IMG/VR virus record: IMGVR_UViG_3300028654_000012
Coordinates: 1-64,000 of that record
From: a virus
Strand: one strand, 5' to 3'
DNA length: 64,000 nucleotides
Position 1 is the stretch's first letter. Each line of letters begins with the position of its first letter. Position numbers and translations under genes: made by a program. This document shows, piece after piece, positions 2,261 to 42,638 of this stretch. The notes below the pieces were generated by a model. It did not search any database and was not told where the DNA came from. It worked only from the letters and a program-made list of their open reading frames with translations.

Positions 2261-2293
2261 GTTAAATAGTATATAATATTAGGAGAAATGCAA

Positions 2294-3262
2294 ATGAGTG
2301 ACATGAATGCAGTTCCTGCAGATGAGCAGATTTTTGGTCTGAACCTTACTGCTTCGCAGGTTGAGGAAAGACTTACTCGTCTCATGAATTCTCCTGGTGG
2401 GCGTCAGACAATCGCTCAGCAGATGCTCTCGCCGCTAAAGAGAGACTTGCTGTTTGAAGGTCGGATTCGCCAGTTGTATCAGACGTATAAGCTCGCTATG
2501 GGTGAGGAAGCCGTATTCGACGCAGACTTGGACGTTCCAGCAGCTAGTATTTCGGTAGAAGGTTTGCCGCAGCAGCTAGAAGTTAAGTCAGATCGTATCC
2601 GCGTTGAAACTTCGCCTATTACTGTTCGCCCCTTAGTTCGTTGGAATGAGTCGAATTTCCGTAAGTTCGACATTCTGAATCGGGCACAGGAACGTGCTAA
2701 AGCGTCTATCCAGCTCCAGGAAGATTCTCGAGGTTTTAATCTGTTGCAGTATGCCGCAAGTCTAACAAACCAGCCGAACGTAGCGTCCCTAGCGGGTACT
2801 ACTGCGGCTTCAAGTAATCCATCACTTCTTACCGATACGTCGGGTAAGTTGTCTCAGGAAACTCTTGTCAATGCAATCGTTACGCTTCGTTCTAAGCTAG
2901 TCCCTTGCAGCAAGATTTTCTTGAACCCAATTCGTTCCGCTGACCTTATGTTGTTCAATACGGTTATCGGTTCTGCGGGTGGTGCTGGTATCTTCGCGCC
3001 GAACTTCCAGGATCAGGCTCTTAAGGCTGGCCGCGTTGGAAACATTTGGGGCGTAGAAGTCCTCGAAGACATCATTGTTCCTTCCGCACAGGTGTATGTC
3101 CTCGCGCCGGCTGATTACCTTGGTGTACTAGCCGTTCGTACGGATCTATCTGTTGAGACCCTGAAGGATTCTAACAAGTTCGCGGACGTGTTCGCGATCT
3201 GGGAAGATGTAGGGTTCGTGATCCGCTTCGCGAAGGGTATTGTACAGATTACCGTAAGCTAA
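2294..3262 (+). CDS. Major capsid protein (HK97-like fold)
   Basis: ~322 aa. N-terminal GRQTIAQQMLSPLKRDLLFEG and C-terminal GNIWGVEV...IVP...VYVLAPADYLGVLAVR...WEDVGFVI resemble large-phage capsid proteins. AGGAG at 2281-2285 fits the ATG at 2294 better than 2288. Followed by a strong terminator. Confidence 0.8.
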   Translation: MSDMNAVPADEQIFGLNLTASQVEERLTRLMNSPGGRQTIAQQMLSPLKRDLLFEGRIRQLYQTYKLAMGEEAVFDADLDVPAASISVEGLPQQLEVKSDRIRVETSPITVRPLVRWNESNFRKFDILNRAQERAKASIQLQEDSRGFNLLQYAASLTNQPNVASLAGTTAASSNPSLLTDTSGKLSQETLVNAIVTLRSKLVPCSKIFLNPIRSADLMLFNTVIGSAGGAGIFAPNFQDQALKAGRVGNIWGVEVLEDIIVPSAQVYVLAPADYLGVLAVRTDLSVETLKDSNKFADVFAIWEDVGFVIRFAKGIVQITVS

Positions 3263-3521: not shown

Positions 3522-4400
3522 ATGGCATTAGTACCTAAAGTCATTACAAGTCTAATTAATGAAGAAATTATTTTAGACGACGTAAGAGGTTTTGCAGGCG
3601 GAGAGGTTCGTATTCCCGCTCTAGCTGCTAATCTTGATCTTACCACGATGGCAACAGAAGATGCTTTGGCAGCTTCTTTCCATCTAGCACACATCGCTAA
3701 TGTAGGAGATGTTACGGTTAACCAAGGTTTTACAGTTGGGGTACCTTTTCCTGCAGCGCCGTTCACAGGTAATCCATATCCTGATGCATCTATGGGTTAT
3801 GCTCTTTCAGCTTCTTCCACAATTACCAACGTAGGTGCTTCGGTAATTACAGGAGACCTTGATCTTTATCCTGGAACTTCAGTAACTGGCTTTCCTCCAG
3901 GAGTTGTACATGGGGCGCAAAATATTGCTAACGCTACTGCCCAGTCTTCACAGGCATCAGCTCTAGCAGCATTTACTGCAGCTAACGCACTTGGCGGTGC
4001 AACAGTTCTTACAGGAGATCTACATACTCATAGTCCCTTAGCTCCTGGCGTCTATTCGTACGCTTCATCTGCAGCCTTGACGGGAACACTAGTATTAGCG
4101 GGTTCTCCCTCTGATACATGGGTTTTCCAGATTGGTACTACGTTAACAACCGCATCTGCTTCTGTAATGTCCATGTCGGGCGGAGCAGTAGCGAGTAACG
4201 TACTCTGGGCAGTAGGCTCTTCAGCTACTCTCGGTACAGGTAGTACATTGGAAGGAAATGTTATCGCTGACGCAAGTATTTCTTTGAACGGCGGTAATAC
4301 AGTTAATGGACAGTTGGCAGCTCTTACCGGCGCGATTACAATCGCAGGCGCTAGTACGGTCACTGCTCCTAGTAGCTTCAATGGCGTAACGTGGGCGTAA
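3522..4400 (+). CDS. DUF3494 ice-binding-like domain protein with an N-terminal putative virion-anchoring module
   Basis: About 3798-4365 carries the DUF3494 pattern YALSASSTITNVG...GDLDLYPGTSVTGFPPG...PGVY...LTGTLVL...WVFQIGTTLTTAS...NVLWAVGSSATLGT...GQLAALTGAITI. The first ~70 aa align with the N-terminus of the 39141 fibre. Confidence 0.85.
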   Translation: MALVPKVITSLINEEIILDDVRGFAGGEVRIPALAANLDLTTMATEDALAASFHLAHIANVGDVTVNQGFTVGVPFPAAPFTGNPYPDASMGYALSASSTITNVGASVITGDLDLYPGTSVTGFPPGVVHGAQNIANATAQSSQASALAAFTAANALGGATVLTGDLHTHSPLAPGVYSYASSAALTGTLVLAGSPSDTWVFQIGTTLTTASASVMSMSGGAVASNVLWAVGSSATLGTGSTLEGNVIADASISLNGGNTVNGQLAALTGAITIAGASTVTAPSSFNGVTWA

Positions 4401-15198: not shown

Positions 15199-15746
15199 TG
15201 TCTCATTTACAGATACTCCCCGCTATTGCAGAACGCGTTGACCCCTTAGTAGAACGCTTTCTCGATATGCGGAATAAGTTTCAGTGGATGATGGGCGTAG
15301 GCGGAGAAACAGTACTACTCTATCAGCGTCGTGAGCAAGGTAAGCTTTGTCCCTTCTACGATCCTATTCGTAGGCAACATAGACAGGATATCGATGAGGT
15401 TTGTTTTGGTACTAACTTCGTCGGAGGATATTATCCCCCTGTATCGATTTTTGTTAGTATTAATCAACCAGGCAGTCAGCAGAAGATTAGATTATATGAA
15501 GAAGGTCTTCGTAGAGAATTCGTTCCTACATGCTGGGCTCTCTGGGAACCTATCTTAAAAAATAGAGATTTTATCGTTCGTAGAGATGGTTCAAGACTTT
15601 GGATTACTGATGTTACTACAAGTCGCTGGAGACATCATACTCTTAGAAGCCTTTTTAAAGTAGAAGAGATTGAGCGTAGTGAGCAGATCTACAAGATTCC
15701 GTTACCAGGTATTTTTCCTGGAATTAGCAGTGGGGGTTCATACTAA
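15198..15746 (+). CDS. Putative head closure (stopper) protein
   Basis: GETVLLYQR...CPFYD...VCFGTNFVGGYYPP resembles large-phage head-closure proteins; neck position. Confidence 0.55.
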   Translation: MSHLQILPAIAERVDPLVERFLDMRNKFQWMMGVGGETVLLYQRREQGKLCPFYDPIRRQHRQDIDEVCFGTNFVGGYYPPVSIFVSINQPGSQQKIRLYEEGLRREFVPTCWALWEPILKNRDFIVRRDGSRLWITDVTTSRWRHHTLRSLFKVEEIERSEQIYKIPLPGIFPGISSGGSY

Positions 15747-16195
15747 TGACTCAAGAAGAAAGATCCTCCTACAATAAAGCTCATTATCTAGCTAATAAAG
15801 AAAAGAAGCTTGCTCATGCTAAACAATATTATAAAGATAATCAAGCGGAAAGAGACGCGCATGACAAGGAATATAAGACTAGGTATTCGGCGGTAAGAAC
15901 TTCTTATCGTAAGGCGCGAAGACATACTCCTGAAGGCCTTCTTTCCATATTAAAGCAGCGGTGTAAGAAAGCTGGAACTACTATTGAACATTATAATTCG
16001 CTCTCTAAAAAGTGTTCTTTTACGCATTGTGAAGCGATCGAACCTGGAGGCAATGGTGATTGGCATCTAGATCACGATCATGCGACCGGAAAGTTTAGAG
16101 GCTTACTTTGCGCAAGACATAATCGCCTGTTAGGGGATGCTCGGGATAGTAAGATAGATTTACAAGATGCGGTAGACTACTTAGGGAGAATATAA
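15746..16195 (+). mobile_element. Free-standing endonuclease VII-type (HNH) homing endonuclease
   Basis: C..C...LDHDHATGKFRGLLCARHNRLLG.ARD is the EndoVII signature, with a basic N-terminal DNA-binding arm. Inserted between neck genes. Confidence 0.8.
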
Positions 16196-16198
16196 ATC

Positions 16199-16846
16199 AT
16201 GCCAGTTCCTAGTCAACCCGTTACACCGCCTATTCTTACCGGACCTGTTATCTCTCGTAGAGTAAGAGATGCTATAGTTGTTAACTTAAGAAATCAGTTT
16301 GCCTTGGATCCTGTGTATCCTTACATTGAGAATCCAGATGGTACTCTTAATATTAATACTACGGCTCCTTATACTCAGATCGCTATTAACGATGCAACTC
16401 CTATAGATTTTTTAATCTACCCTTGTATTACGGTAGAGAATCTCTCAGGTGAAGAGCACAGATTTTTGCAGCAAGATTATTTCGAACAGTTTAAAGATGC
16501 GAACGGAAACGTTTTCAATCGCCGCGGTGCGCCTATGACGATGGAAGTAACCATCAAGGCGAAGGCGCTTGACACAGTTGTAAGAGATCAAGTTCTAGAT
16601 AGGCTTTATGAAAGGTTCAAGATACTCACCGACTATTTGTCTGCCAGCGGTGTAGGAGTAGTAAAGACCAGCTTACTAGCAGATGACAGAGAATTCCCTT
16701 ATGACAGATGGATTTATACTTCGGGAATTCGTATGACGCTGTACGTAGAGTGGACTGAAATCAATCCTATCGGTGCTACTCTTAAAAAGATTACTGGTAC
16801 AGTAACTACTGAGGATCAGGCAATTAGTGAATCCTTTAAACTTTAA
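16199..16846 (+). CDS. Putative tail terminator / tail completion protein
   Basis: 215 aa, directly upstream of the sheath; YPCITVE...MEVTIKAKA pattern. Assignment rests mainly on gene order. Confidence 0.5.
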   Translation: MPVPSQPVTPPILTGPVISRRVRDAIVVNLRNQFALDPVYPYIENPDGTLNINTTAPYTQIAINDATPIDFLIYPCITVENLSGEEHRFLQQDYFEQFKDANGNVFNRRGAPMTMEVTIKAKALDTVVRDQVLDRLYERFKILTDYLSASGVGVVKTSLLADDREFPYDRWIYTSGIRMTLYVEWTEINPIGATLKKITGTVTTEDQAISESFKL

Positions 16847-16879
16847 ATAATTTAAACAATACTTTGGAGAAATAACAAT

Positions 16880-19207
16880 ATGGCAAATAATCCTCCGTTA
16901 TCCGCAGAAGGCGCCGAGTCGGGAGTAGTGGTAGAATTTGTACCCTCTACTGCTCAGCCCAATATCTCTGGCGGAATTAGAACTGTAGCCCTTATCGGAA
17001 CCGGTAAGACTACTAAGACTCTAACTGCTACTCTTACTAGAGGAGCTCCAGCTACACCCTTAGCTCCCGGAGCACCTGACTTAGCTTCGGCTTTGCCCTA
17101 TGCTATCTTAGCTGCTTCAACTGTTACTAACGTAGGAGCTTCAACGTTAGTAGGAGATCTAGGTCTTTTTCCAGGTACTTCTGTTACAGGGTTTCCTCCA
17201 GGCACATTATCTGGTGCCGAGAATATCGGTAACAGCTTAGCTCAGCAGGCTCAAGTCGATGCTACTGCAGCTTATACCAATCTAGCTCTACGCGTAGGAG
17301 CTATTGATGAAACTGGTAACGACCTCAACACTATTACCGGACCCGGTCTCTATAAGTGGACATCTTCTGCAGCTCTCACAGGGACGATGACTCTGACGGG
17401 GTCAGCTACTGATGTAGTTATCTTTCAAATTGGTAGTACTCTAACTACGAGTTCTTCTCCGGCTGTAGTACTTGTAGGTATTTTACCTCAGAACGTATTC
17501 TGGCAGGTAGGCTCTTCAGCTACTCTAGGTGGAGGTACCTTCCAAGGTGTTCTCTTAGCCAATACTAGCGTCTCTGTAAGTGCGGCTTGCGTAGTTACAG
17601 GGCAGCTAATCGCGCTCAACGGAGCAGTAACTATCGCTGCTGCTTCTTCCATTACTGATAACGTTCTTGAAGGAGCTGCTACAGATATTCTACTTCCTCC
17701 AGCGTTCTCACTACCTTCTACGATCACTGATGCTACTTACGTTAATTATAATCTAGGAATCGACTATACCCTAGTAGATGGCAACGTAACTTGGCTTACC
17801 GCTCCTGCATCTTTTACAAGTAATGTAAACGCTACGGGTGGATTAAACGTTACGGGGTTAACCTTTATCGTTTCTTTCAACGGAGCTACTCCAGTAAACT
17901 TTACCTTTACGGGAAGTAACCCTGTCAGTCAGGCGAGCATCGTTTCTCAGATGAATACCGCGTTTGGTGCTCAAGGTGCTGCTGCAGCTTTCGGATCATT
18001 TATTACACTCTCTAACTCAAATCCTCCGGGACCTGTTAATACTATTCAGGTACTTGGTGGAACGGCTAACGCTGTCCTAGGATTTACAGGTGGATTAATC
18101 GCGAAAGGACCTCAGCAACCTACTCCTACGATTGGATTGGTTCCTGGAACTATGTATTCCTTTAGCTATCAGTCACCTAAGGTTTCAGCAGATTATGTTC
18201 CTACAGTTTACTACGATCTACAAGATCTAATCAACGATATGGGGCCTGTTCCTACTAACACAGCTACTCCTCCAGCGGTTTATAATCTTCAGTCTTCGGA
18301 CTATACGTTACCTCTTGGAGCTCAAGTAGTATTCCAGAATAGTGCTAACTCCGGAGCCGTAGTTGCTATGCAGCTAGATCCGGCGGATGAGCCGGCCTTG
18401 ACAGGATTCCAGAATGCCCTAAACAAACTACTAGCAGTACCTAACATTAATATCGTGGTATGTCTGACAGGAGATCCAAACTTATACCCAGCTATCTTAG
18501 GTCACGTAACTAATGCTAGCGCTCCTCTAGAAGGTAACTTCAGAACTGCCATCGTAGGTATGCATGGTAATCCGTCTATTGCTACGGCTACTGGATATGC
18601 CTCAGGCTTCTCTGCAGGAGGTAATGGTAGACGTATCTTGTTAGTTTATCCTCCAGCTGCATCTATCCCTGCAACTAATGGTGCCGTTCAGACTGACGGA
18701 GCTTTTATTGCAGCCGCGATTGCAGGTCTTCGTATTAATAGTAACTATGACGTGGCTGAGCCTCTTCTGAGAAAGCAGTTACAGGGTATTAATAGTATTC
18801 CGGCTAATCTTCTTCGCTCACAGAAGTTAGCTCTTCGTAATGGCGGAGTTACGGTAGTTGAAACAGTCAACGGTATCATTCGCGTTATGGAAGATACTAC
18901 GACTGATAGATCTACTGTTGACGCTGAGAACTATTCAGTTACAGAGATCATCGACTTCGTAGCAGAGTCTACTCAGTCTACATTGAATAATCTATTCATT
19001 GGAATCAAGCTCTTAAACGATACCCCAAGTATGATTGTAACTACTCTTAATCTGTTACTATCCACGTTTGTTGACCTACAGATTATTAATGGATTCACTA
19101 ACGTATCTGCAACAGTTAACTCTATAGATCCGTCACAGATAGATGTTTCTTTCGACATCGCTCCCGTATATCCTTTGAGATACATTTCAGTTACATTCTC
19201 TATCTAA
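16880..19207 (+). CDS. Tail sheath protein with an inserted DUF3494 ice-binding-like domain
   Basis: Sheath N-terminus (VALIGTG) and C-terminus (AAAIAGL...EPLLRKQL...GGVTVVE...IRVMEDTTT...IDVSFDIAPVYPLRYISVTF). The DUF3494 motif runs from about 17099 to 17657. Confidence 0.85.
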   Translation: MANNPPLSAEGAESGVVVEFVPSTAQPNISGGIRTVALIGTGKTTKTLTATLTRGAPATPLAPGAPDLASALPYAILAASTVTNVGASTLVGDLGLFPGTSVTGFPPGTLSGAENIGNSLAQQAQVDATAAYTNLALRVGAIDETGNDLNTITGPGLYKWTSSAALTGTMTLTGSATDVVIFQIGSTLTTSSSPAVVLVGILPQNVFWQVGSSATLGGGTFQGVLLANTSVSVSAACVVTGQLIALNGAVTIAAASSITDNVLEGAATDILLPPAFSLPSTITDATYVNYNLGIDYTLVDGNVTWLTAPASFTSNVNATGGLNVTGLTFIVSFNGATPVNFTFTGSNPVSQASIVSQMNTAFGAQGAAAAFGSFITLSNSNPPGPVNTIQVLGGTANAVLGFTGGLIAKGPQQPTPTIGLVPGTMYSFSYQSPKVSADYVPTVYYDLQDLINDMGPVPTNTATPPAVYNLQSSDYTLPLGAQVVFQNSANSGAVVAMQLDPADEPALTGFQNALNKLLAVPNINIVVCLTGDPNLYPAILGHVTNASAPLEGNFRTAIVGMHGNPSIATATGYASGFSAGGNGRRILLVYPPAASIPATNGAVQTDGAFIAAAIAGLRINSNYDVAEPLLRKQLQGINSIPANLLRSQKLALRNGGVTVVETVNGIIRVMEDTTTDRSTVDAENYSVTEIIDFVAESTQSTLNNLFIGIKLLNDTPSMIVTTLNLLLSTFVDLQIINGFTNVSATVNSIDPSQIDVSFDIAPVYPLRYISVTFSI

Positions 19208-19796: not shown

Positions 19797-20327
19797 ATGG
19801 CCATTCCTACGCTTCCTAATACAATCGCACGGTTATCTACATCAATCACTATTCGATTGATCCCTATCGATAATCTGAACTCATCCATTTTATCAAATCC
19901 TACTGCATTTACATCTGCAGCTCTCCAGGCGGCACCTATTGGCGCTATTGAATCGTTGACAGAAAGTAACGATCGCCCAGCTAAACAGCGTTTTCAGATG
20001 AATGCTGCAGCACCGGGAGTTGTCGTAGAATTGCTACCAGGATTAGTTGCTCCTAGAACGCTAGAAGTTAAGAGAGCTGTTTTGTATGATTCAGATGCTC
20101 TTGACGCTCTACAGATTGCTAATGGTGACGTTGTTTTCCAGAGCTCCCCATTCGCTATCGTAAAGGTAGAGTCTGCCCCTGCAGCTTCTACAGTTCCTAC
20201 TAGAGTTACTATTTATCGTGGATGCTGGGTAACTAACAATCCTAAGATTTACAGTTTGGACAATGACCTGAAAATCGTTCAGAACATGGTTATTGCGTAC
20301 ACGGAAAGAGAAGTAGTTTCGTCTTAA
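19797..20327 (+). CDS. Tail tube-like protein, paralogue 2
   Basis: MAIPTLPNTIARL vs MAIPVVPNTDARL; RTLEVKRAVLY; TIYRGCWV. Confidence 0.6.
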   Translation: MAIPTLPNTIARLSTSITIRLIPIDNLNSSILSNPTAFTSAALQAAPIGAIESLTESNDRPAKQRFQMNAAAPGVVVELLPGLVAPRTLEVKRAVLYDSDALDALQIANGDVVFQSSPFAIVKVESAPAASTVPTRVTIYRGCWVTNNPKIYSLDNDLKIVQNMVIAYTEREVVSS

Positions 20328-27079: not shown

Positions 27080-27643
27080 ATGGGTCTACCACAATTAATA
27101 GCCGGAACTAAAAATGTAAATCCCAAATATTTCGGAGGGGCTGTTGGCCTCGCCGCAGTCTTGTGTATTGAAGATTTTTTAAATGTGTTAGCTCAAAATC
27201 CAGTTATTCTAGCTACTTTTAAAAATCTCTTACAGACTCTAATTGTCTTTGTTAACTTACAAGTTGAAACTTTACAGCTTTTCGTAGATACTTTACTTCT
27301 CCAAATAGATATTATTACTCCCCTTATTCAAGAATACGCGGCAGTAAAGTCGCAGCTTGCTTCAGAGTTAGGCCAATTTGGTATCAGTAAATTTACAGCT
27401 TGTCCGCCAATTTTATATATTCAAAATGCTATGACTGCCCAAGCTTCTGGCACATCAGTTTTAGGAAAAGTTTTTAAGGGTGTTAGAAATATGGACGCCT
27501 ATATTATGGGTCTTCAGTTTAAAGTTCTCAAGCTTAAGAATCAAATTCAACAAATTAATGCTTACATTGCAGAGCTTAATGCTACTACTATTATATTTCA
27601 AGCGATTATCAACGCTATAGACGCACAGTATCCGAGCATCTAA
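27080..27643 (+). CDS. Hypothetical baseplate-region protein
   Basis: 187-aa helical ORF between the spike and gp25-like genes. Confidence 0.55.
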   Translation: MGLPQLIAGTKNVNPKYFGGAVGLAAVLCIEDFLNVLAQNPVILATFKNLLQTLIVFVNLQVETLQLFVDTLLLQIDIITPLIQEYAAVKSQLASELGQFGISKFTACPPILYIQNAMTAQASGTSVLGKVFKGVRNMDAYIMGLQFKVLKLKNQIQQINAYIAELNATTIIFQAIINAIDAQYPSI

Positions 27644-28113
27644 TGGATTTCTATCTGAGAACCCCTAAAAATTTTAACGATCCTAACCAAGCTGGAATCA
27701 TAGGTAATTTCTACTTTGGAGATGGTACTAACGATCTCCAGGTAGATACTAACGGAGATTTTTCACTAATTCAGGGAGCTGCAAATTTAGATCAAGGTAT
27801 GGCTAAAATCTTGTCGACGGAGCAAGGAGCCAATCAGTTTTTTGATCTATATGGTTCCCTTCTATGGGGTCTAATTGGTAGTACTACTGATCTCCAAACG
27901 TTGACTGCATCAGTTCAAGGGACCGTTATTGACGCCCTTACTATCTATCAGTTTATTAATCAAAGTAATCCTAATTTAGATGAGCAGATTAATACCCTAG
28001 AGAGTATGAACGTTACCTCCGTATCAGTTGATTATATAGAAGTAGACCTGACTGTTATTACCATGTCTGGTCTACGGGTAGGTACTACGATTACCGCAGG
28101 TAATCCTAGTTAA
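27643..28113 (+). CDS. Baseplate wedge subunit (gp25/gpW-like)
   Basis: NDLQVDTNGDF.LI.G..NL.Q...KIL.TE.G...YGS.L pattern; precedes the J-like gene. Confidence 0.65.
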   Translation: MDFYLRTPKNFNDPNQAGIIGNFYFGDGTNDLQVDTNGDFSLIQGAANLDQGMAKILSTEQGANQFFDLYGSLLWGLIGSTTDLQTLTASVQGTVIDALTIYQFINQSNPNLDEQINTLESMNVTSVSVDYIEVDLTVITMSGLRVGTTITAGNPS

Positions 28114-28116
28114 ACT

Positions 28117-29550
28117 ATGGCAATTCGAACTTTAACAGAAATTATTAGCGACGCGGTCGCCTTTATTCAATCGCAAATTCCTTCATTATCTCTGCTTCCT
28201 GGAAGCGTAGCTCGAGATGTTGTGGTAGAATCTCCTGCTCAAGAATTTGCCAATGTATACACTGAATTGCAGCGTTTAGAGGATATACAAACACTATCTG
28301 ATCCTAACGCTTTTACCACAACTGAGATTACGGCTGCTGCCGCAGATGTAGGTTTGACGCCATTACCAGCGACCCCTTCTTTAGGCTTTGTCACCTTTAG
28401 AGCTAACACTCTGACGACTAACGTCTCTATCGCAGCTAATACGACCGTAAGTACTAGTCCTACTACCTTAAGTCCTAGCACTGTATCTTTCCAGGTTACT
28501 GCAGGTGGTACGATGTTTTCGGCAAATGCTTCGTCGTACCTGAATCCTGTAACAGGCCTTTATGAGCTTCAGCTGCCTGTCCAATCTGTAGATGACGGTT
28601 CGGCGACTAACGTAGCCGCAGGGACTATTACTACGCTGCTAATGCCTATCACAGGTATTACTTCAATAACAAATGCTGCTCCTACTTCGGGCGGATCAAA
28701 TGCTGAGACTAATACTGCTTTAGCAGCTCGCATCATATTAAAACTATCCGGAAATAATGTAGGTACCGCAGCAGGTATCCAATCTTTAGTTGAGACTAAC
28801 AGTTCTGTCATAGATTCTCTAATTATTAAGCCAGGCGATCCTTTATTAACTAGGGACCAATTCGGAAATTCTGTTAACGTAATTATTCAAGGTCAAGTTG
28901 TAACACAAGTTGTAGATGTTGATACCTATCACACAGGTACTCCTACTTATGTAATGGGCCAGCAACCTGTGGATTCAGTAGTATCTGTAACGGGCATCGT
29001 AGGAGGTAATCCTTATACCTTTATACCTACTATAGATTATTCTGTGTATATTGACTACTACAGCGTTTATACAGGTTCTGTAGATGCTACTTCGTCTATA
29101 ACTTTCTTAAATACAGGTCAATCTCCTGATACGGGCACAGTTATAACTATCACGTACTCAATTAATTCATTAATTTCCACACTACAGGCCCTACTAGATG
29201 CTGACTCCAATAAGATTTTAGGTTCTGACGTCCTAGTTATGGAAGCTACAGAAGTGTTAGTACAGGTGGCGGCTTCTATTACGGTACTTCCAGGATATAC
29301 TCATGGAGACGTAGCGCTGCAGGTAGTTACTAACGTAGGTAATTATATTAACTCTCTAAAGCTGGGTCAGTCTGTACTGAATGCTAAGCTAATTGCTATA
29401 ATTGAAGATACTACGGGAGTAAGTGATGTGCTTACCTTGCCCGTAACTGTTTTGGCAGAGTATCCTCCTTATATAGGATTCGTATCTACTCTAGACGTTA
29501 TTATACCTGAAACTGCTTACGCCTTTGCTAGCACTATTAATATTACTTAA
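28117..29550 (+). CDS. Baseplate J-like protein
   Basis: PGSVARDVVVE...PATPSLGFVTF...NVAAGTI...ITNAAPTSGGSNAET...L.ARI. Confidence 0.8.
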   Translation: MAIRTLTEIISDAVAFIQSQIPSLSLLPGSVARDVVVESPAQEFANVYTELQRLEDIQTLSDPNAFTTTEITAAAADVGLTPLPATPSLGFVTFRANTLTTNVSIAANTTVSTSPTTLSPSTVSFQVTAGGTMFSANASSYLNPVTGLYELQLPVQSVDDGSATNVAAGTITTLLMPITGITSITNAAPTSGGSNAETNTALAARIILKLSGNNVGTAAGIQSLVETNSSVIDSLIIKPGDPLLTRDQFGNSVNVIIQGQVVTQVVDVDTYHTGTPTYVMGQQPVDSVVSVTGIVGGNPYTFIPTIDYSVYIDYYSVYTGSVDATSSITFLNTGQSPDTGTVITITYSINSLISTLQALLDADSNKILGSDVLVMEATEVLVQVAASITVLPGYTHGDVALQVVTNVGNYINSLKLGQSVLNAKLIAIIEDTTGVSDVLTLPVTVLAEYPPYIGFVSTLDVIIPETAYAFASTINIT

Positions 29551-39140: not shown

Positions 39141-42100
39141 ATGAGTATAATTCCGCAGGTAGTTATAAACTTAACCGACGAGGCTATTACTCTGTTCGAC
39201 GTCAGAGCATGGAATACTAAGCCTATCGTTCTACCTCCTTTCAACACTCAGCCTGGCGGCGTTCCTGTAGATCTTTCCCTTCTTGCTCTTGATGTAGATT
39301 TAACTAAATCTTTCCATTTGAAGCATTTATATCGCACAGGAAAGATTCACGTAAACTCTACTTTCTTAGTTAGCCAGCTTCAAGCTGGTACGATGGGAAT
39401 TGATGAAGTAGCAATAATCGGAATTCCTACTGTCGGCCAAGCCCCCATCGCCACGAGCCCGACTACTGCTGTCTGGCAGAGTCTTCCGGTAACGCTTCCT
39501 CCTTCAGGACCTGCTGGCGGAGATTTATCAGGAACCTATCCTAATCCTACTGTTGTCTCCGCAGCCGGAAATTTTACAGTAGCGGCGGGACAAATTCTTA
39601 CCCCTACTATTACTTCTTTACTAGGATCTGGAACCGCTCTTTCGATTCGAGCTAATGATGGACAAGGAGGTGCTCCTGGAGGTACTCTTTCTTTAGCTAG
39701 CGGAGCTAGTTCCGGGGGTTTGCCCGTAGGATCTGGAGCTACTATTACCCTTGCAGGAGCACTAAGTCCTGCTACAATTTCGATGGTAGCTGGAAATAAT
39801 GGTTTTGGAACTACTGGAGCATCTTTCAGTCTGGCAGGAGCGGCAGGAGGAGTAGGCGGAGATGCTACTCTTACGGGTGGAACGGGTCAAGGTAACCATG
39901 GCGGCTACATTAATCTTAATACAGGTGGAGGAAGTAGCTCAGGAGCTATCCTCTTTCAGATCGCTGGAACTGAGGCTGCTAGAGTAGATGCATCAGGTTA
40001 TTTCGGTATTGGAACTACTTTACCTTCTACGGCTCTTACTGTTCAAGGAGCCACTAATTATGGCGTAATTAAAGTTCTGAGTGCAGCTCCTGGCGGTGAA
40101 GCTAGTATTGGCTTTAGGCCAATTGATGGGACTGACGGAGGCGTTAACGATTGGGTTATTGGCTCTACAGTTAACGGTAGTGGAAATAATTTTGTTTTCT
40201 GGAATCAATCTAATAACTTAATTACAATTGATCCCTCAGGCAATATGAATCTTGCCTTTGGAGGATTAACTGCGAATAGTTTAACTACTCCTACTCTGCA
40301 AGTTAATGGCTTAGAGACGATAGTTGGCTCTGACAATGGATTTCCAGGTAACGGTTTAGTAATTGTCCCTCCTAATCACACACAGACTGCTACTTATGGG
40401 TGGGGCGGAATAACAACTTCGTCTATCTTCGTCATACAGACTGGAGGGGGGCAGAATCTTTACCTCAATCCCTCATTCGCCGGCGGCTTCGTTGGCATAG
40501 GTATTGATCCCAATGTAGGATCTCCTTTAGGTCCTTTACAGGTTCGTGCGGCGGCTGATATAAATCTTTTGGTAAATGCCGCAGCTGGAGCTCTTACCCT
40601 CTCTGCTATTAACGATGTAAATAGTGCTAATGTACCTTTTGCGATTCGAGCTTCTAGTCTATCTCTCGATAATGGTGCAATTACTACTGATGGTAGTGGT
40701 AATGCTACTTTCAGAAGTGTAGCTATCAGTACTGATGGTTCTCCCATTTTTTCAGCAGGGTATGACCTCAAAATTAGAAGCACCACCTCTCTCTTAGGGA
40801 TTCACACCGATTATACGGGAGGTATCCCCACTCTAGAATTTGGTTGTGGTGATGTAGGTACTATTGCTCGAATTACTACTAATGGATCTACGAATCCTAT
40901 TGTGCTTAGTGCGGGAGGAGTTGATAGTGTATTGTTCTCTCCTGCGGGGCAAGTTGGATTATATGGAAATAATACTTCTCTAGGCGCCCTCGATATAGGA
41001 GGTAATCTTCTCATCTCTACCGCCTCGGTTATTAATCCTGCTCCAGGTAATACCGGAAGTATAAATATCTTTGCAGGTAATACCCAAGATTCTGCGGCTG
41101 TTGCAGGTAATATAAATATAGCTGCTGGTGCTGCGAATACTAATGGCGCTTCAGGCGGTAATGTCTCCATTAGCGGAGGATATTCCGTAGGAGGAGTTGT
41201 CGGAGGGCCGAGCTTAACTCTTTATGGAGCTCAAGGCAATCCAGGTACTCAAGTATCGGGTGCAGCAGCTATTAATGGCGGAACGAATGGTCAAGGAGAT
41301 GGTGGCGCAGGCATCCTTCTAAATCCGGGGAATGGATCAATCGGGGGCGGCTCCGTAAATATAAGCGCAGGAAGTTCTGCGAGTAGGCCTGGAGGAGATA
41401 TTATACTTTCTCCGGGAGTAGGTAGCACTACAGGTCACGTTCAAATTCTAGATGGCTCCCAAGGTGTAGGCAAGGTTCTAACCTCTGATGCTTCGGGTAA
41501 TGCTTCCTGGCAAGCTTCCGCAGGATTTGCGATAGGTTCGGTAATTGCTACCTACATAACGGGAGTGCAGTCCTCAGCTTTCGCCACTTTCGATGGCGTT
41601 AATATGTGGGTTAGTGGCCAAGGAAGTTCAGGTACTCTTGCAAAGATATCTCCTGATGGAGTAAGTACTGTACTCGGAGGAATAGGTTCCTATCCTTACG
41701 GACAGGTTTTTGACGGTAAGAATATATGGGTTCTGGGAAATAATGCGGAAACCATTATCAAGGTTGAACCTAATGGTACTACAACTCCTTATCCTCTTCC
41801 AATTAATAATCCTATATTTGGAGCTTTCGATGGTACTAATATTTGGGTTACCGATGGAACTAGTAATGCTGTCGTAAAAGTAGCTCCAGACGGAACTCCT
41901 ACTGCTTATACGGGAGCGGTATCTAATCCTTACGGTATAGCCTTTGATGGTCAAAATATGTGGGTGGCTAATTCGACGGATGGATCTGTTTCTAAAATAG
42001 ATCCTAGCGGGGTCATGACCAATTATCCTATCCCAGGTGTTTCTCAGTCTTACGGTATAGCCTTCGATGGTGCTAATATGTGGGTAACAAGTCCTATAGA

Positions 42101-42638
42101 AGGGGCCGTTACCGAAGTAGCACCTGATGGATCAGTTATTGCTACTTACTTCGGAATTCCTGGAGCCATATGGATTGCTTTCGACGGCACTAACATGTGG
42201 GTGGTTAGTAATACTGTAGGAGATGTTACTCGCGTTGCTCCCGATGGATCATTTATTTCCTATCCCGGAGTTACAGGTTTCTCAAACGGTATAGCCTTTG
42301 ATGGTCAAAATATGTGGGTGGTTGGCGGTGCTGATAATACTATTAGTGAAGTTCAAGCTCTACCCCACTTTTATAGAACCAATTCTCCTTCAGACTTAAC
42401 AGGATTTGCCTTAGCTAGTTCTATAAAGGGCGCACCTTCTAGCAGTGCAACTGTAGCCGTTCCGATCTCTTCGGTTACTACTTACACCGTAACTCATAAT
42501 TTAGGATACTATCCATTAGTACAGATTCTAAATAGCTCAGGCTTCATGGTTATTCCTAATTCTCTATTCCATACAGATATGAATAACTTTACAGTAACTT
42601 TTACTCTTCCGGTAACAGGCACGATCATTTACAGGTAA
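39141..42638 (+). CDS. Giant fibre/adhesin with a C-terminal 7-blade beta-propeller
   Basis: 1165 aa. N-terminus homologous to the 3522 protein; G-rich beta-helical repeats; seven FDGxN[MI]W repeats. Confidence 0.75.
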   Translation: MSIIPQVVINLTDEAITLFDVRAWNTKPIVLPPFNTQPGGVPVDLSLLALDVDLTKSFHLKHLYRTGKIHVNSTFLVSQLQAGTMGIDEVAIIGIPTVGQAPIATSPTTAVWQSLPVTLPPSGPAGGDLSGTYPNPTVVSAAGNFTVAAGQILTPTITSLLGSGTALSIRANDGQGGAPGGTLSLASGASSGGLPVGSGATITLAGALSPATISMVAGNNGFGTTGASFSLAGAAGGVGGDATLTGGTGQGNHGGYINLNTGGGSSSGAILFQIAGTEAARVDASGYFGIGTTLPSTALTVQGATNYGVIKVLSAAPGGEASIGFRPIDGTDGGVNDWVIGSTVNGSGNNFVFWNQSNNLITIDPSGNMNLAFGGLTANSLTTPTLQVNGLETIVGSDNGFPGNGLVIVPPNHTQTATYGWGGITTSSIFVIQTGGGQNLYLNPSFAGGFVGIGIDPNVGSPLGPLQVRAAADINLLVNAAAGALTLSAINDVNSANVPFAIRASSLSLDNGAITTDGSGNATFRSVAISTDGSPIFSAGYDLKIRSTTSLLGIHTDYTGGIPTLEFGCGDVGTIARITTNGSTNPIVLSAGGVDSVLFSPAGQVGLYGNNTSLGALDIGGNLLISTASVINPAPGNTGSINIFAGNTQDSAAVAGNINIAAGAANTNGASGGNVSISGGYSVGGVVGGPSLTLYGAQGNPGTQVSGAAAINGGTNGQGDGGAGILLNPGNGSIGGGSVNISAGSSASRPGGDIILSPGVGSTTGHVQILDGSQGVGKVLTSDASGNASWQASAGFAIGSVIATYITGVQSSAFATFDGVNMWVSGQGSSGTLAKISPDGVSTVLGGIGSYPYGQVFDGKNIWVLGNNAETIIKVEPNGTTTPYPLPINNPIFGAFDGTNIWVTDGTSNAVVKVAPDGTPTAYTGAVSNPYGIAFDGQNMWVANSTDGSVSKIDPSGVMTNYPIPGVSQSYGIAFDGANMWVTSPIEGAVTEVAPDGSVIATYFGIPGAIWIAFDGTNMWVVSNTVGDVTRVAPDGSFISYPGVTGFSNGIAFDGQNMWVVGGADNTISEVQALPHFYRTNSPSDLTGFALASSIKGAPSSSATVAVPISSVTTYTVTHNLGYYPLVQILNSSGFMVIPNSLFHTDMNNFTVTFTLPVTGTIIYR

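Follow-up and report, generated by a model that had tools for sequence, protein, structure and literature searches.

An ice-binding-type DUF3494 domain inserted in the contractile tail sheath of a large rhizosphere phage, a possible surface-adhesion module

Contractile tail sheaths of type 3, such as T4 gp18 and the sheath of phage 812, build their core from the protein's N- and C-terminal parts and carry accessory domains between them, away from the tube (PMC9230969, PMC3004832). In a survey of 112 sheaths, accessory domains sat away from the tube-contacting part and were mostly immunoglobulin-like (Ig-like) sandwiches, or helical in AR9 and PBS1; large genomes tend to encode multi-domain sheaths, and adhesion or stabilisation has been proposed as the role of the extra domains (PMC9230969). 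Proteins of the DUF3494 family (PF11999, Ice_binding) have been characterised in another setting: the closest ones to the case described here, EfcIBP and AnpIBP, come from cold-habitat organisms, in which they are free, secreted or exposed on the cell surface, and their ice activity has been measured. We describe here the tail sheath gene of IMG/VR virus record IMGVR_UViG_3300028654_000012, a linear record of 116,673 bp, of which positions 1-64,000 (the window) were analysed. A DUF3494 domain is inserted in the N-terminal region of this sheath. Unlike its characterised relatives, the phage domain has no signal peptide context, is spliced in a loop of the sheath, belongs to a phage-specific clade, comes from the rhizosphere and is known from sequence. 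We found no paper that describes a multi-domain sheath with this accessory fold on phages. The words 'ice' and 'solenoid' are absent from the main text of the 112-sheath survey (PMC9230969), no paper pairing ice binding with a tail sheath was found in the literature searched, and the search for DUF3494 together with phage returned one ocean-proteome preprint only, with a single mention of DUF3494. A tblastn search of 50,697 catalogued phage genomes with the insert gave nothing at E<=1e-3.

PF11999 matches amino acids (aa) 76-255 of the sheath open reading frame (ORF) with 132.5 bits, where the cut-off is 28.7 (E=2.2e-38). The match is collinear, covering model positions 1-205 of 208, and is reproduced by a six-frame search of the genome; phmmer of the insert against the EfcIBP structure 6EIO gave E=1.4e-34. 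Homologues were sought among 5.8 billion proteins. One sheath, 88% identical (P0002), contains the insert, and two insert-less sheaths, P0003 (563 aa, 79% identical) and P0004 (553 aa, 75% identical), pass straight from ...TRGS to ...ADTLTP in alignment A1. Because P0003 and P0004 lack exactly that segment, the insert is placed at aa 56-265, nucleotides 17045-17674. A first-pass annotation of the DNA had proposed this alignment as a check on its own limits, 17040-17680, which were a few bases off; it had located the domain inside the sheath N-terminal region between two quoted motifs, both of which are indeed present in ORF 16880..19207. The insert begins with a Pro/Ala-rich N-linker (aa 56-71) and ends ...NVLEG, with a short C-linker at aa 262-268. 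Both junctions (17040-17060 and 17668-17685, encoding R-G-A-P-A-T and E-G-A-A-T) bear the motif GGAGCT..GCTACA, which may be insertion microhomology or chance and is less clear in the relative G001.

Nine contigs, drawn from several assemblies, encode the identical protein. In other rhizosphere samples, too, both junctions are bridged by contigs, without any difference in sequence: X4 reaches from 16697 to 18043, and each junction is covered by X5 and X6. No insert-skipping contig was seen. The insert is not an assembly artefact. Apparent joints at 17205/17423 and 17442/17506 do not represent deletions: they are matches of 20-36 nucleotides that stem from the paralogous DUF3494 copies, and the letters that separate them differ.

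The protein that carries the insert is a tail sheath. PF17482 (Phage_sheath_1C) matches aa 686-774 (43.2 bits, cut-off 26.9). Three PHROGs hit the core: tail sheath 2839 at aa 439-775 (E=5.5e-30), 279 and 10244. The subtilisin-like sheath domain PF04984 reaches 22.7 bits, below its cut-off of 31.4; at E<=0.01, the Pfam scan of the ORF returned only PF11999 and these two sheath families. In tblastn, the core finds sheaths annotated in Bacillus phage G, Rhodococcus phage E3 and cluster C mycobacteriophages. The record of 116.7 kb contains a single PF17482 match, so that this is its only sheath gene. Together with the structural matches described below and the contiguous tail module around the gene, these results bear out the earlier identification of the gene as the sheath, and the open, intact core agrees with the statement that the sheath core is intact downstream of the insert.

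To describe the domain organization, we used an AlphaFold2 model (mean predicted local distance difference test score (pLDDT) 74.5; predicted template modelling score (pTM) 0.49) computed on a checked alignment, A7, which is a small balanced set with a core depth of about 14 sequences. The combined alignments A4, A6 and A8 were rejected for folding, because the DUF3494 sequences were scattered by MAFFT across the sheath core; A7 alone aligned them with the insert. On assembled sheath subunits, the model superposes through residues about 30-55 and 424-708 with Z scores of 19-24, the matches at Z 21-24 being phage 812, phiCD508, pyocin R2 and cyanophage A-1(L); the VIA alignments to solved sheaths start at model residues about 28-35. 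Since the core is formed by N- and C-terminal parts, aa 56-423 form an excursion holding two accessory domains, and the model identifies the protein as a multi-domain type 3 contractile sheath subunit with two accessory domains, the DUF3494 insert and a beta-rich domain X. The pLDDT is 76-95 for the insert (aa 72-260) and 75-93 for domain X (aa 269-415), and the linkers (aa 55-71 and 262-268) fall below 50. These low-confidence linkers argue for flexible tethers at both ends of the insert. Domain X itself contains a second insertion hot spot, at aa about 363-372 (window about 17966-17995). In other sheaths (P0005, P0008, P0010) this hot spot is occupied: type-2 sheaths, as defined below, hold DUF3494 there, and P0005 holds tandem DUF4815-type modules.

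In the modelled insert, a long helix (aa 119-137) packs on beta strands. AlphaFold2, Foldseek and VIA-align all give the hallmark of DUF3494, a discontinuous triangular beta-solenoid braced by one long alpha-helix. Foldseek of the insert against solved ice-binding proteins gave template modelling (TM) scores of 0.84-0.88, and VIA-align of model residues 61-265 gave Z 28-31 and root-mean-square deviations (rmsd) of 1.4-2.4 Å over ~200 residues. EfcIBP (6EIO) is the best match (Z 31.2, rmsd 1.5 Å, 38-40% identity), with AnpIBP (7BWX) close by (Z 30.8, 34-36% identity); FfIBP, ColAFP, TisAFP, LeIBP and SfIBP_1 follow at Z 27-30. The likeness to EfcIBP and AnpIBP (7BWX/7BWY) concerns the fold of the whole domain, at Z about 31, rmsd 1.4-1.5 Å and, for the pair, 36-40% identity. 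In the DUF3494 solenoid the loops follow the order b1-b6-b5-b4-b3-b2 (PMC7277481, PMC11645318). This order brings the termini side by side, and the domain can thus plug into a loop of a host protein and leave that protein undisturbed.

The strength of selection on the insert was estimated from the ratio of non-synonymous to synonymous substitution rates (dN/dS) between the window and an 88%-identical relative (L009). We obtained 0.062 for the insert, at dS about 1.3, 0.041 for the sheath core and 0.10 for domain X. The insert is therefore kept by selection as strongly as the sheath itself. Its GC content at third codon positions (0.30) is the same as in the remainder of the gene; this complete amelioration indicates that the insertion is old. 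Among the 25 amino-acid differences in the insert (17045-17674 versus L009:3166-3795), 11 are changes to Thr in the relative G001, which suggests a directional Thr enrichment on the surface of the domain.

The sheath insert is one of four DUF3494 domains in the record, the others being in ORFs of 292, 674 and 1226 aa, and the reading frame is intact in all of them. The four copies are 48-54% identical among themselves, the sheath insert being 49% identical to the copy of the 292-aa ORF and 54% to that of the 674-aa ORF. The 292-aa ORF consists of a ~95-aa N-terminal part followed by DUF3494; it has no PHROG match and is a candidate head decoration protein. The relatives G002, G003 and G004 have three DUF3494 copies each, sheath included, and the complete relative G005 has none. 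We scanned 1.84 billion representatives with the insert-less sheath and obtained 874 relatives, the best 150 of which range from 194 to 2,138 aa; among 70 sheath relatives scanned, 6 contain PF11999 and 21 contain DUF4815 (PF16075). In related sheaths, DUF3494 occupies three different positions: directly after the N-terminal arm (type 1, found only in this phage and G001), within domain X, ahead of the core (type 2, the commonest form), and deep inside sheaths of 1,050-1,110 aa (type 3, the G002 and G003 groups). IMG/VR contains 10 further sheath fusions, which are type-2-like, and at least 182 confirmed stretches with DUF3494 were found there with one peptide pattern. Sheaths make up 10 of the 85 DUF3494 carriers in IMG/VR; most of the others are largely unannotated proteins of virion size. 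The ORFs that carry DUF3494 on the viral contigs of loci L096-L172 have lengths between 251 and 2,567 aa, and 9 ORFs contain two or three copies.

A tree of 183 domains, including 17 phage copies and 156 cellular ones, was used to trace this distribution. All 17 phage copies fall in one clade apart from the 156 cellular domains (support 99, and 100/99 in a second tree), a clade that also takes in a few metagenomic proteins, at least some of which are phage-encoded. Each type of sheath insert is placed closer to virion copies outside the sheath than to either of the remaining types, and for types 2 and 3 these closer copies include some from the same phages. In the window, the copy nearest to the sheath insert by path length is that of the 674-aa ORF, and no well-supported branch joins the two. 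In an approximately unbiased (AU) test, a tree in which all sheath inserts form one clade is rejected (delta lnL, the difference in log-likelihood, 152; p-AU 5e-6). These trees give good support to independent entry into the sheath, at least three times. They are most simply explained if the phage lineage captured the domain once, long ago, and the cassette was then shuffled between its virion genes. The first-pass annotation had treated the sheath insert alone. The insert itself stands; its isolation does not, as it is one of four copies in the virion module and belongs to one of at least three independent sheath insertions.

Such mobility raises the question of whether the domain is a neutral passenger, a selfish cassette without phage function, or the product of a chimeric assembly. 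Its behaviour as a mobile cassette among virion genes would fit a passenger, as would the Endonuclease VII gene that lies two genes upstream of the sheath, inside the tail module, and that may encode a homing endonuclease. Against it stand the low dN/dS at a dS of about 1.3, the ameliorated codon composition, the intact frame of all copies and the recurrence of independent sheath insertions, while the confirmation of the junctions in independent samples speaks against a chimera. We regard this explanation as the least probable of those weighed here.

The number of inserts per tail can be approached by comparison with T4, whose sheath contains 138 gp18 subunits in 23 rings of 40.6 Å and whose tape measure protein gp29 has a mass of 64.4 kDa (PMC3004832). 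As the 575-aa tape-measure candidate of the window is close to gp29, scaling from T4 leads to about 130 copies. This estimate, which depends on a tape measure that is itself a candidate, is in line with the order of 100 copies put forward in the first-pass annotation. In T4 gp18, domain I protrudes outward and the termini are inside (PMC3004832); by analogy, the insert is expected to be displayed outward on the assembled tail.

How such domains could act together depends on their orientation. They might, as the first-pass annotation suggested, form an array in which the helical lattice of sheath-borne domains nucleates ice by ordering water and contraction switches its geometry. Large assemblies of ice-binding surfaces can nucleate ice, and the high copy number and helical order of sheaths would suit this function. 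Yet the predicted linkers, both with pLDDT below 50, and the pTM of 0.49 argue against a rigid, lattice-matched array, no fixed orientation being predicted. Tethering at one end of the solenoid would moreover place its flat B face along the projecting axis and not in a common outward plane. The Pfam scan at E<=0.01 returned no ice-nucleation repeat family, and the comparison with InaZ-type ice-nucleation proteins sets their long tandem repeats of 16 residues against a single globular domain of 200 aa. Ice templating thus appears very unlikely. Avidity arising from many flexibly tethered binders, whatever their ligand, is plausible.

The inserts could also brace the tail, if neighbouring DUF3494 domains, or DUF3494 and domain X, packed together and so cemented the extended sheath or tuned its contraction. 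Extra sheath domains have been proposed as tail stabilisers, for example domain II of phage 812 (PMC9230969), ice-binding faces are often stacked against each other in crystals, and the purifying selection on the insert is strong. This explanation is hard to reconcile with the presence of the domain in baseplate, fibre-like and capsid-adjacent proteins, which have different lattice neighbours, with its three different positions in related sheaths and with its flexible tethers; close relatives without the domain assemble. We consider a bracing role improbable.

To examine the putative binding face, we mapped the ice-binding site of AnpIBP (PMC7277481) on the insert through the alignment of the two, taking into account an offset of 6 in the deposited chain. 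AnpIBP requires S153 and T156 for ice binding (PMC7277481), and the strand that contains these residues is identical in the insert (SSATLG, aa 212-217). All 27 outward positions equivalent to the B face bear small residues, 21 of them (78%) Ser or Thr, and charged or aromatic residues are absent; Ser and Thr make up 24% of the whole domain (p about 1e-10). The insert thus shares with EfcIBP and AnpIBP a flat B face of small residues, rich in Ser and Thr. However, 157 cellular homologue domains from unknown habitats have the same face composition, with a mean of 64% Ser and Thr. We therefore did not retain B-face composition as a means to discriminate ice binders: the Ser/Thr face is family-wide and not diagnostic of ice binding.

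The chemistry of this face and the relatives of the domain make a true ice-binding virion possible, if slightly less probable than adhesion to another surface. The B face would bind ice or its quasi-liquid layer, with the ~130 sheath copies and the others providing avidity, and the particle would be protected in freeze-thaw soil by recrystallisation inhibition or held at the surfaces of ice and brine veins where hosts concentrate. The nearest characterised relatives, EfcIBP and AnpIBP, are all ice binders, and EfcIBP shields cells and proteins from freezing damage; the SSATLG strand and the composition of the face agree with this function. The ice adhesin SfIBP_1 (6BG8, Z 27.4) likewise carries DUF3494 on a larger surface-exposed scaffold, where it serves attachment; there the domain is terminal and on a bacterial cell surface, whereas here it is internal and in a virion lattice. 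Seasonally frozen soils are common, which also counts for ice. On the other side, the habitat label is rhizosphere and not cryosphere (all 19 sequencing runs with the sequence are labelled rhizosphere metagenome), the cellular homologues have the same face, and ice binders are over-represented among solved structures. Hot springs, caves and groundwater are among the habitats of the family, which is found in hundreds of bacteria from non-freezing habitats, where other surfaces are suspected as ligands, and is termed 'ice-binding and substrate-binding' (PMC12337378, PMC11645318). Cellular homologues are commonly fused to modules for surface display, with Big_5, LPXTG anchors, autotransporters and proteases among the fusion partners, which is a precedent for an adhesin. 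A stronger form of the idea, in which the sheath, baseplate, fibre and capsid-adjacent copies are all active ice binders and avidity makes the virion a potent recrystallisation inhibitor or ice adhesin, seems to us rather doubtful.

We favour, with a probability of roughly 0.45, a surface-adhesion module with a ligand other than ice. The conserved core (aa 1-55 and 424-775) would polymerise around the tube, and the DUF3494 beta-solenoid (aa 56-265), then domain X, would loop out of it, so that the solenoid would project about 130 times from the outer surface of the tail. With the same domain in capsid-adjacent, baseplate and fibre-like proteins, the virion may be coated over its whole length. 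Through its flat, uncharged, Ser/Thr-rich B face, each copy would contribute to a low-affinity, high-avidity adhesion to an extended hydrated surface. The domain would then be a functional analogue of the Ig-like domains on the sheaths, heads and fibres of other phages. Like Hoc-type decoration domains (T4 Hoc, with weak carbohydrate adhesion), it would be dispensable, exposed in large numbers on head, tail and fibre proteins, and moved around between structural genes; it differs in being a beta-solenoid with a helix instead of an Ig-like beta-sandwich and is not a member of that family. We place non-ice surfaces as a class (host envelope or extracellular polymeric substance (EPS) glycans, soil or plant surfaces) slightly ahead of ice as the probable ligand; ice is the single best-precedented one.

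Several points weigh against adhesion to a non-ice surface. Every solved structural relative of the insert is a true ice-binding protein, and we know of no PF11999 protein for which a non-ice ligand has been shown. A B face devoid of aromatic and charged residues is unusual for carbohydrate sites and typical of ice-binding sites. The case for an outward orientation is built on topology and on sheath structures in the literature, not on computed geometry, and the tube and tape-measure assignments rest on position. Incorporation of the domain into the virion, and its persistence there in uncleaved form, are predictions from the genes.

The window encodes all its long ORFs on the + strand, in the arrangement of a structural module (Table 1). 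CheckV puts the completeness of the record at about 56%, which suggests a genome near 200 kb; the relative G005, complete and with terminal repeats, has 210 kb. No terminase was found in the record, which is incomplete, and the window contains no tRNAs. The Baseplate J-like wedge protein anchors the baseplate module. The two ORFs that follow the sheath, probably a duplicated pair of tail tube proteins, have N-termini that are alike and no match in the Pfam or PHROG scans, and the tape-measure candidate has no family match in these scans. Cultured relatives are remote: the capsid is 29% identical to that of Bacillus phage G, with cluster C mycobacteriophages at about 25%. Myxococcus phages appear neither in the organism tallies of the sheath and capsid searches nor among the matches listed.

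Table 1. Sheath regions and structural-module genes, in window positions
Feature	Position	Strand	Remarks
Major capsid gene	2288..3262	+	
292-aa ORF with DUF3494	3522..4400	+	just downstream of major capsid gene; domain at 3810..4349
Endonuclease VII / HNH-type ORF	15746-16195	+	Pfam E=1e-13; PHROG endonuclease VII
Tail sheath gene, 775 aa	16880..19207	+	
Sheath N-terminal arm and first core strands, aa 1-55	16880..17044	+	conserved in all homologues aligned; strands E35-40, E45-53
DUF3494 / IBP-1-fold insert, aa 56-265	17045..17674	+	Pfam match at 17105-17644
Domain X, aa 266-423	17675..18148	+	beta-rich accessory domain, two short helices; common to insert-less homologues
Conserved sheath core, aa 424-775	18149..19204	+	
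Two paralogous ORFs, 187 and 176 aa	19214-19777, 19797-20327	+	directly after sheath; tail tube candidates by position only
Small chaperone-like ORF			between tube candidates and tape-measure candidate
Tape-measure candidate, 575 aa	21066..22793	+	Ala/Gly/Met/Gln-rich; by position and composition only
Small baseplate protein	27643..28113		PHROG baseplate families
Baseplate J-like wedge protein	28117..29550	+	PF04865 E=3.8e-17; PHROG 6 E=5e-33
674-aa ORF with DUF3494	29574..31598	+	directly after Baseplate_J; domain at 30615..31169
1226-aa fibre/baseplate-like ORF with DUF3494	31598..35278	+	domain at 33620..34162
Tail-collar fibre			downstream part of tail module
1165-aa ORF	39141-42638	+	Vgb_lyase / SGL-type beta-propeller region, aa 829-999; downstream of fibre genes

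Nearly every sheath accessory domain described so far is Ig-like, with a role that has been guessed at. In the present case, a fold whose physical activity, the binding of ice or ordered water, is well defined has entered the sheath at least three separate times in a single lineage of large soil phages, as well as their baseplates and fibres, and is under strong purifying selection. With the plug-in topology of the domain and the empty-site homologues, this sheath lends itself naturally as a scaffold to studies of how domains are displayed on contractile tails. If the domain does not bind ice, it would offer a first way to learn what function other than ice binding the many DUF3494 proteins of temperate microbes have. 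If it does, this would be the first ice-binding virion, which would bear on the persistence of phages in seasonally frozen soils: a lineage of ~200-kb soil phages would survive or exploit freeze-thaw cycles, and the repeated insertions in the sheath would be the record of selection for more ice-binding surface.

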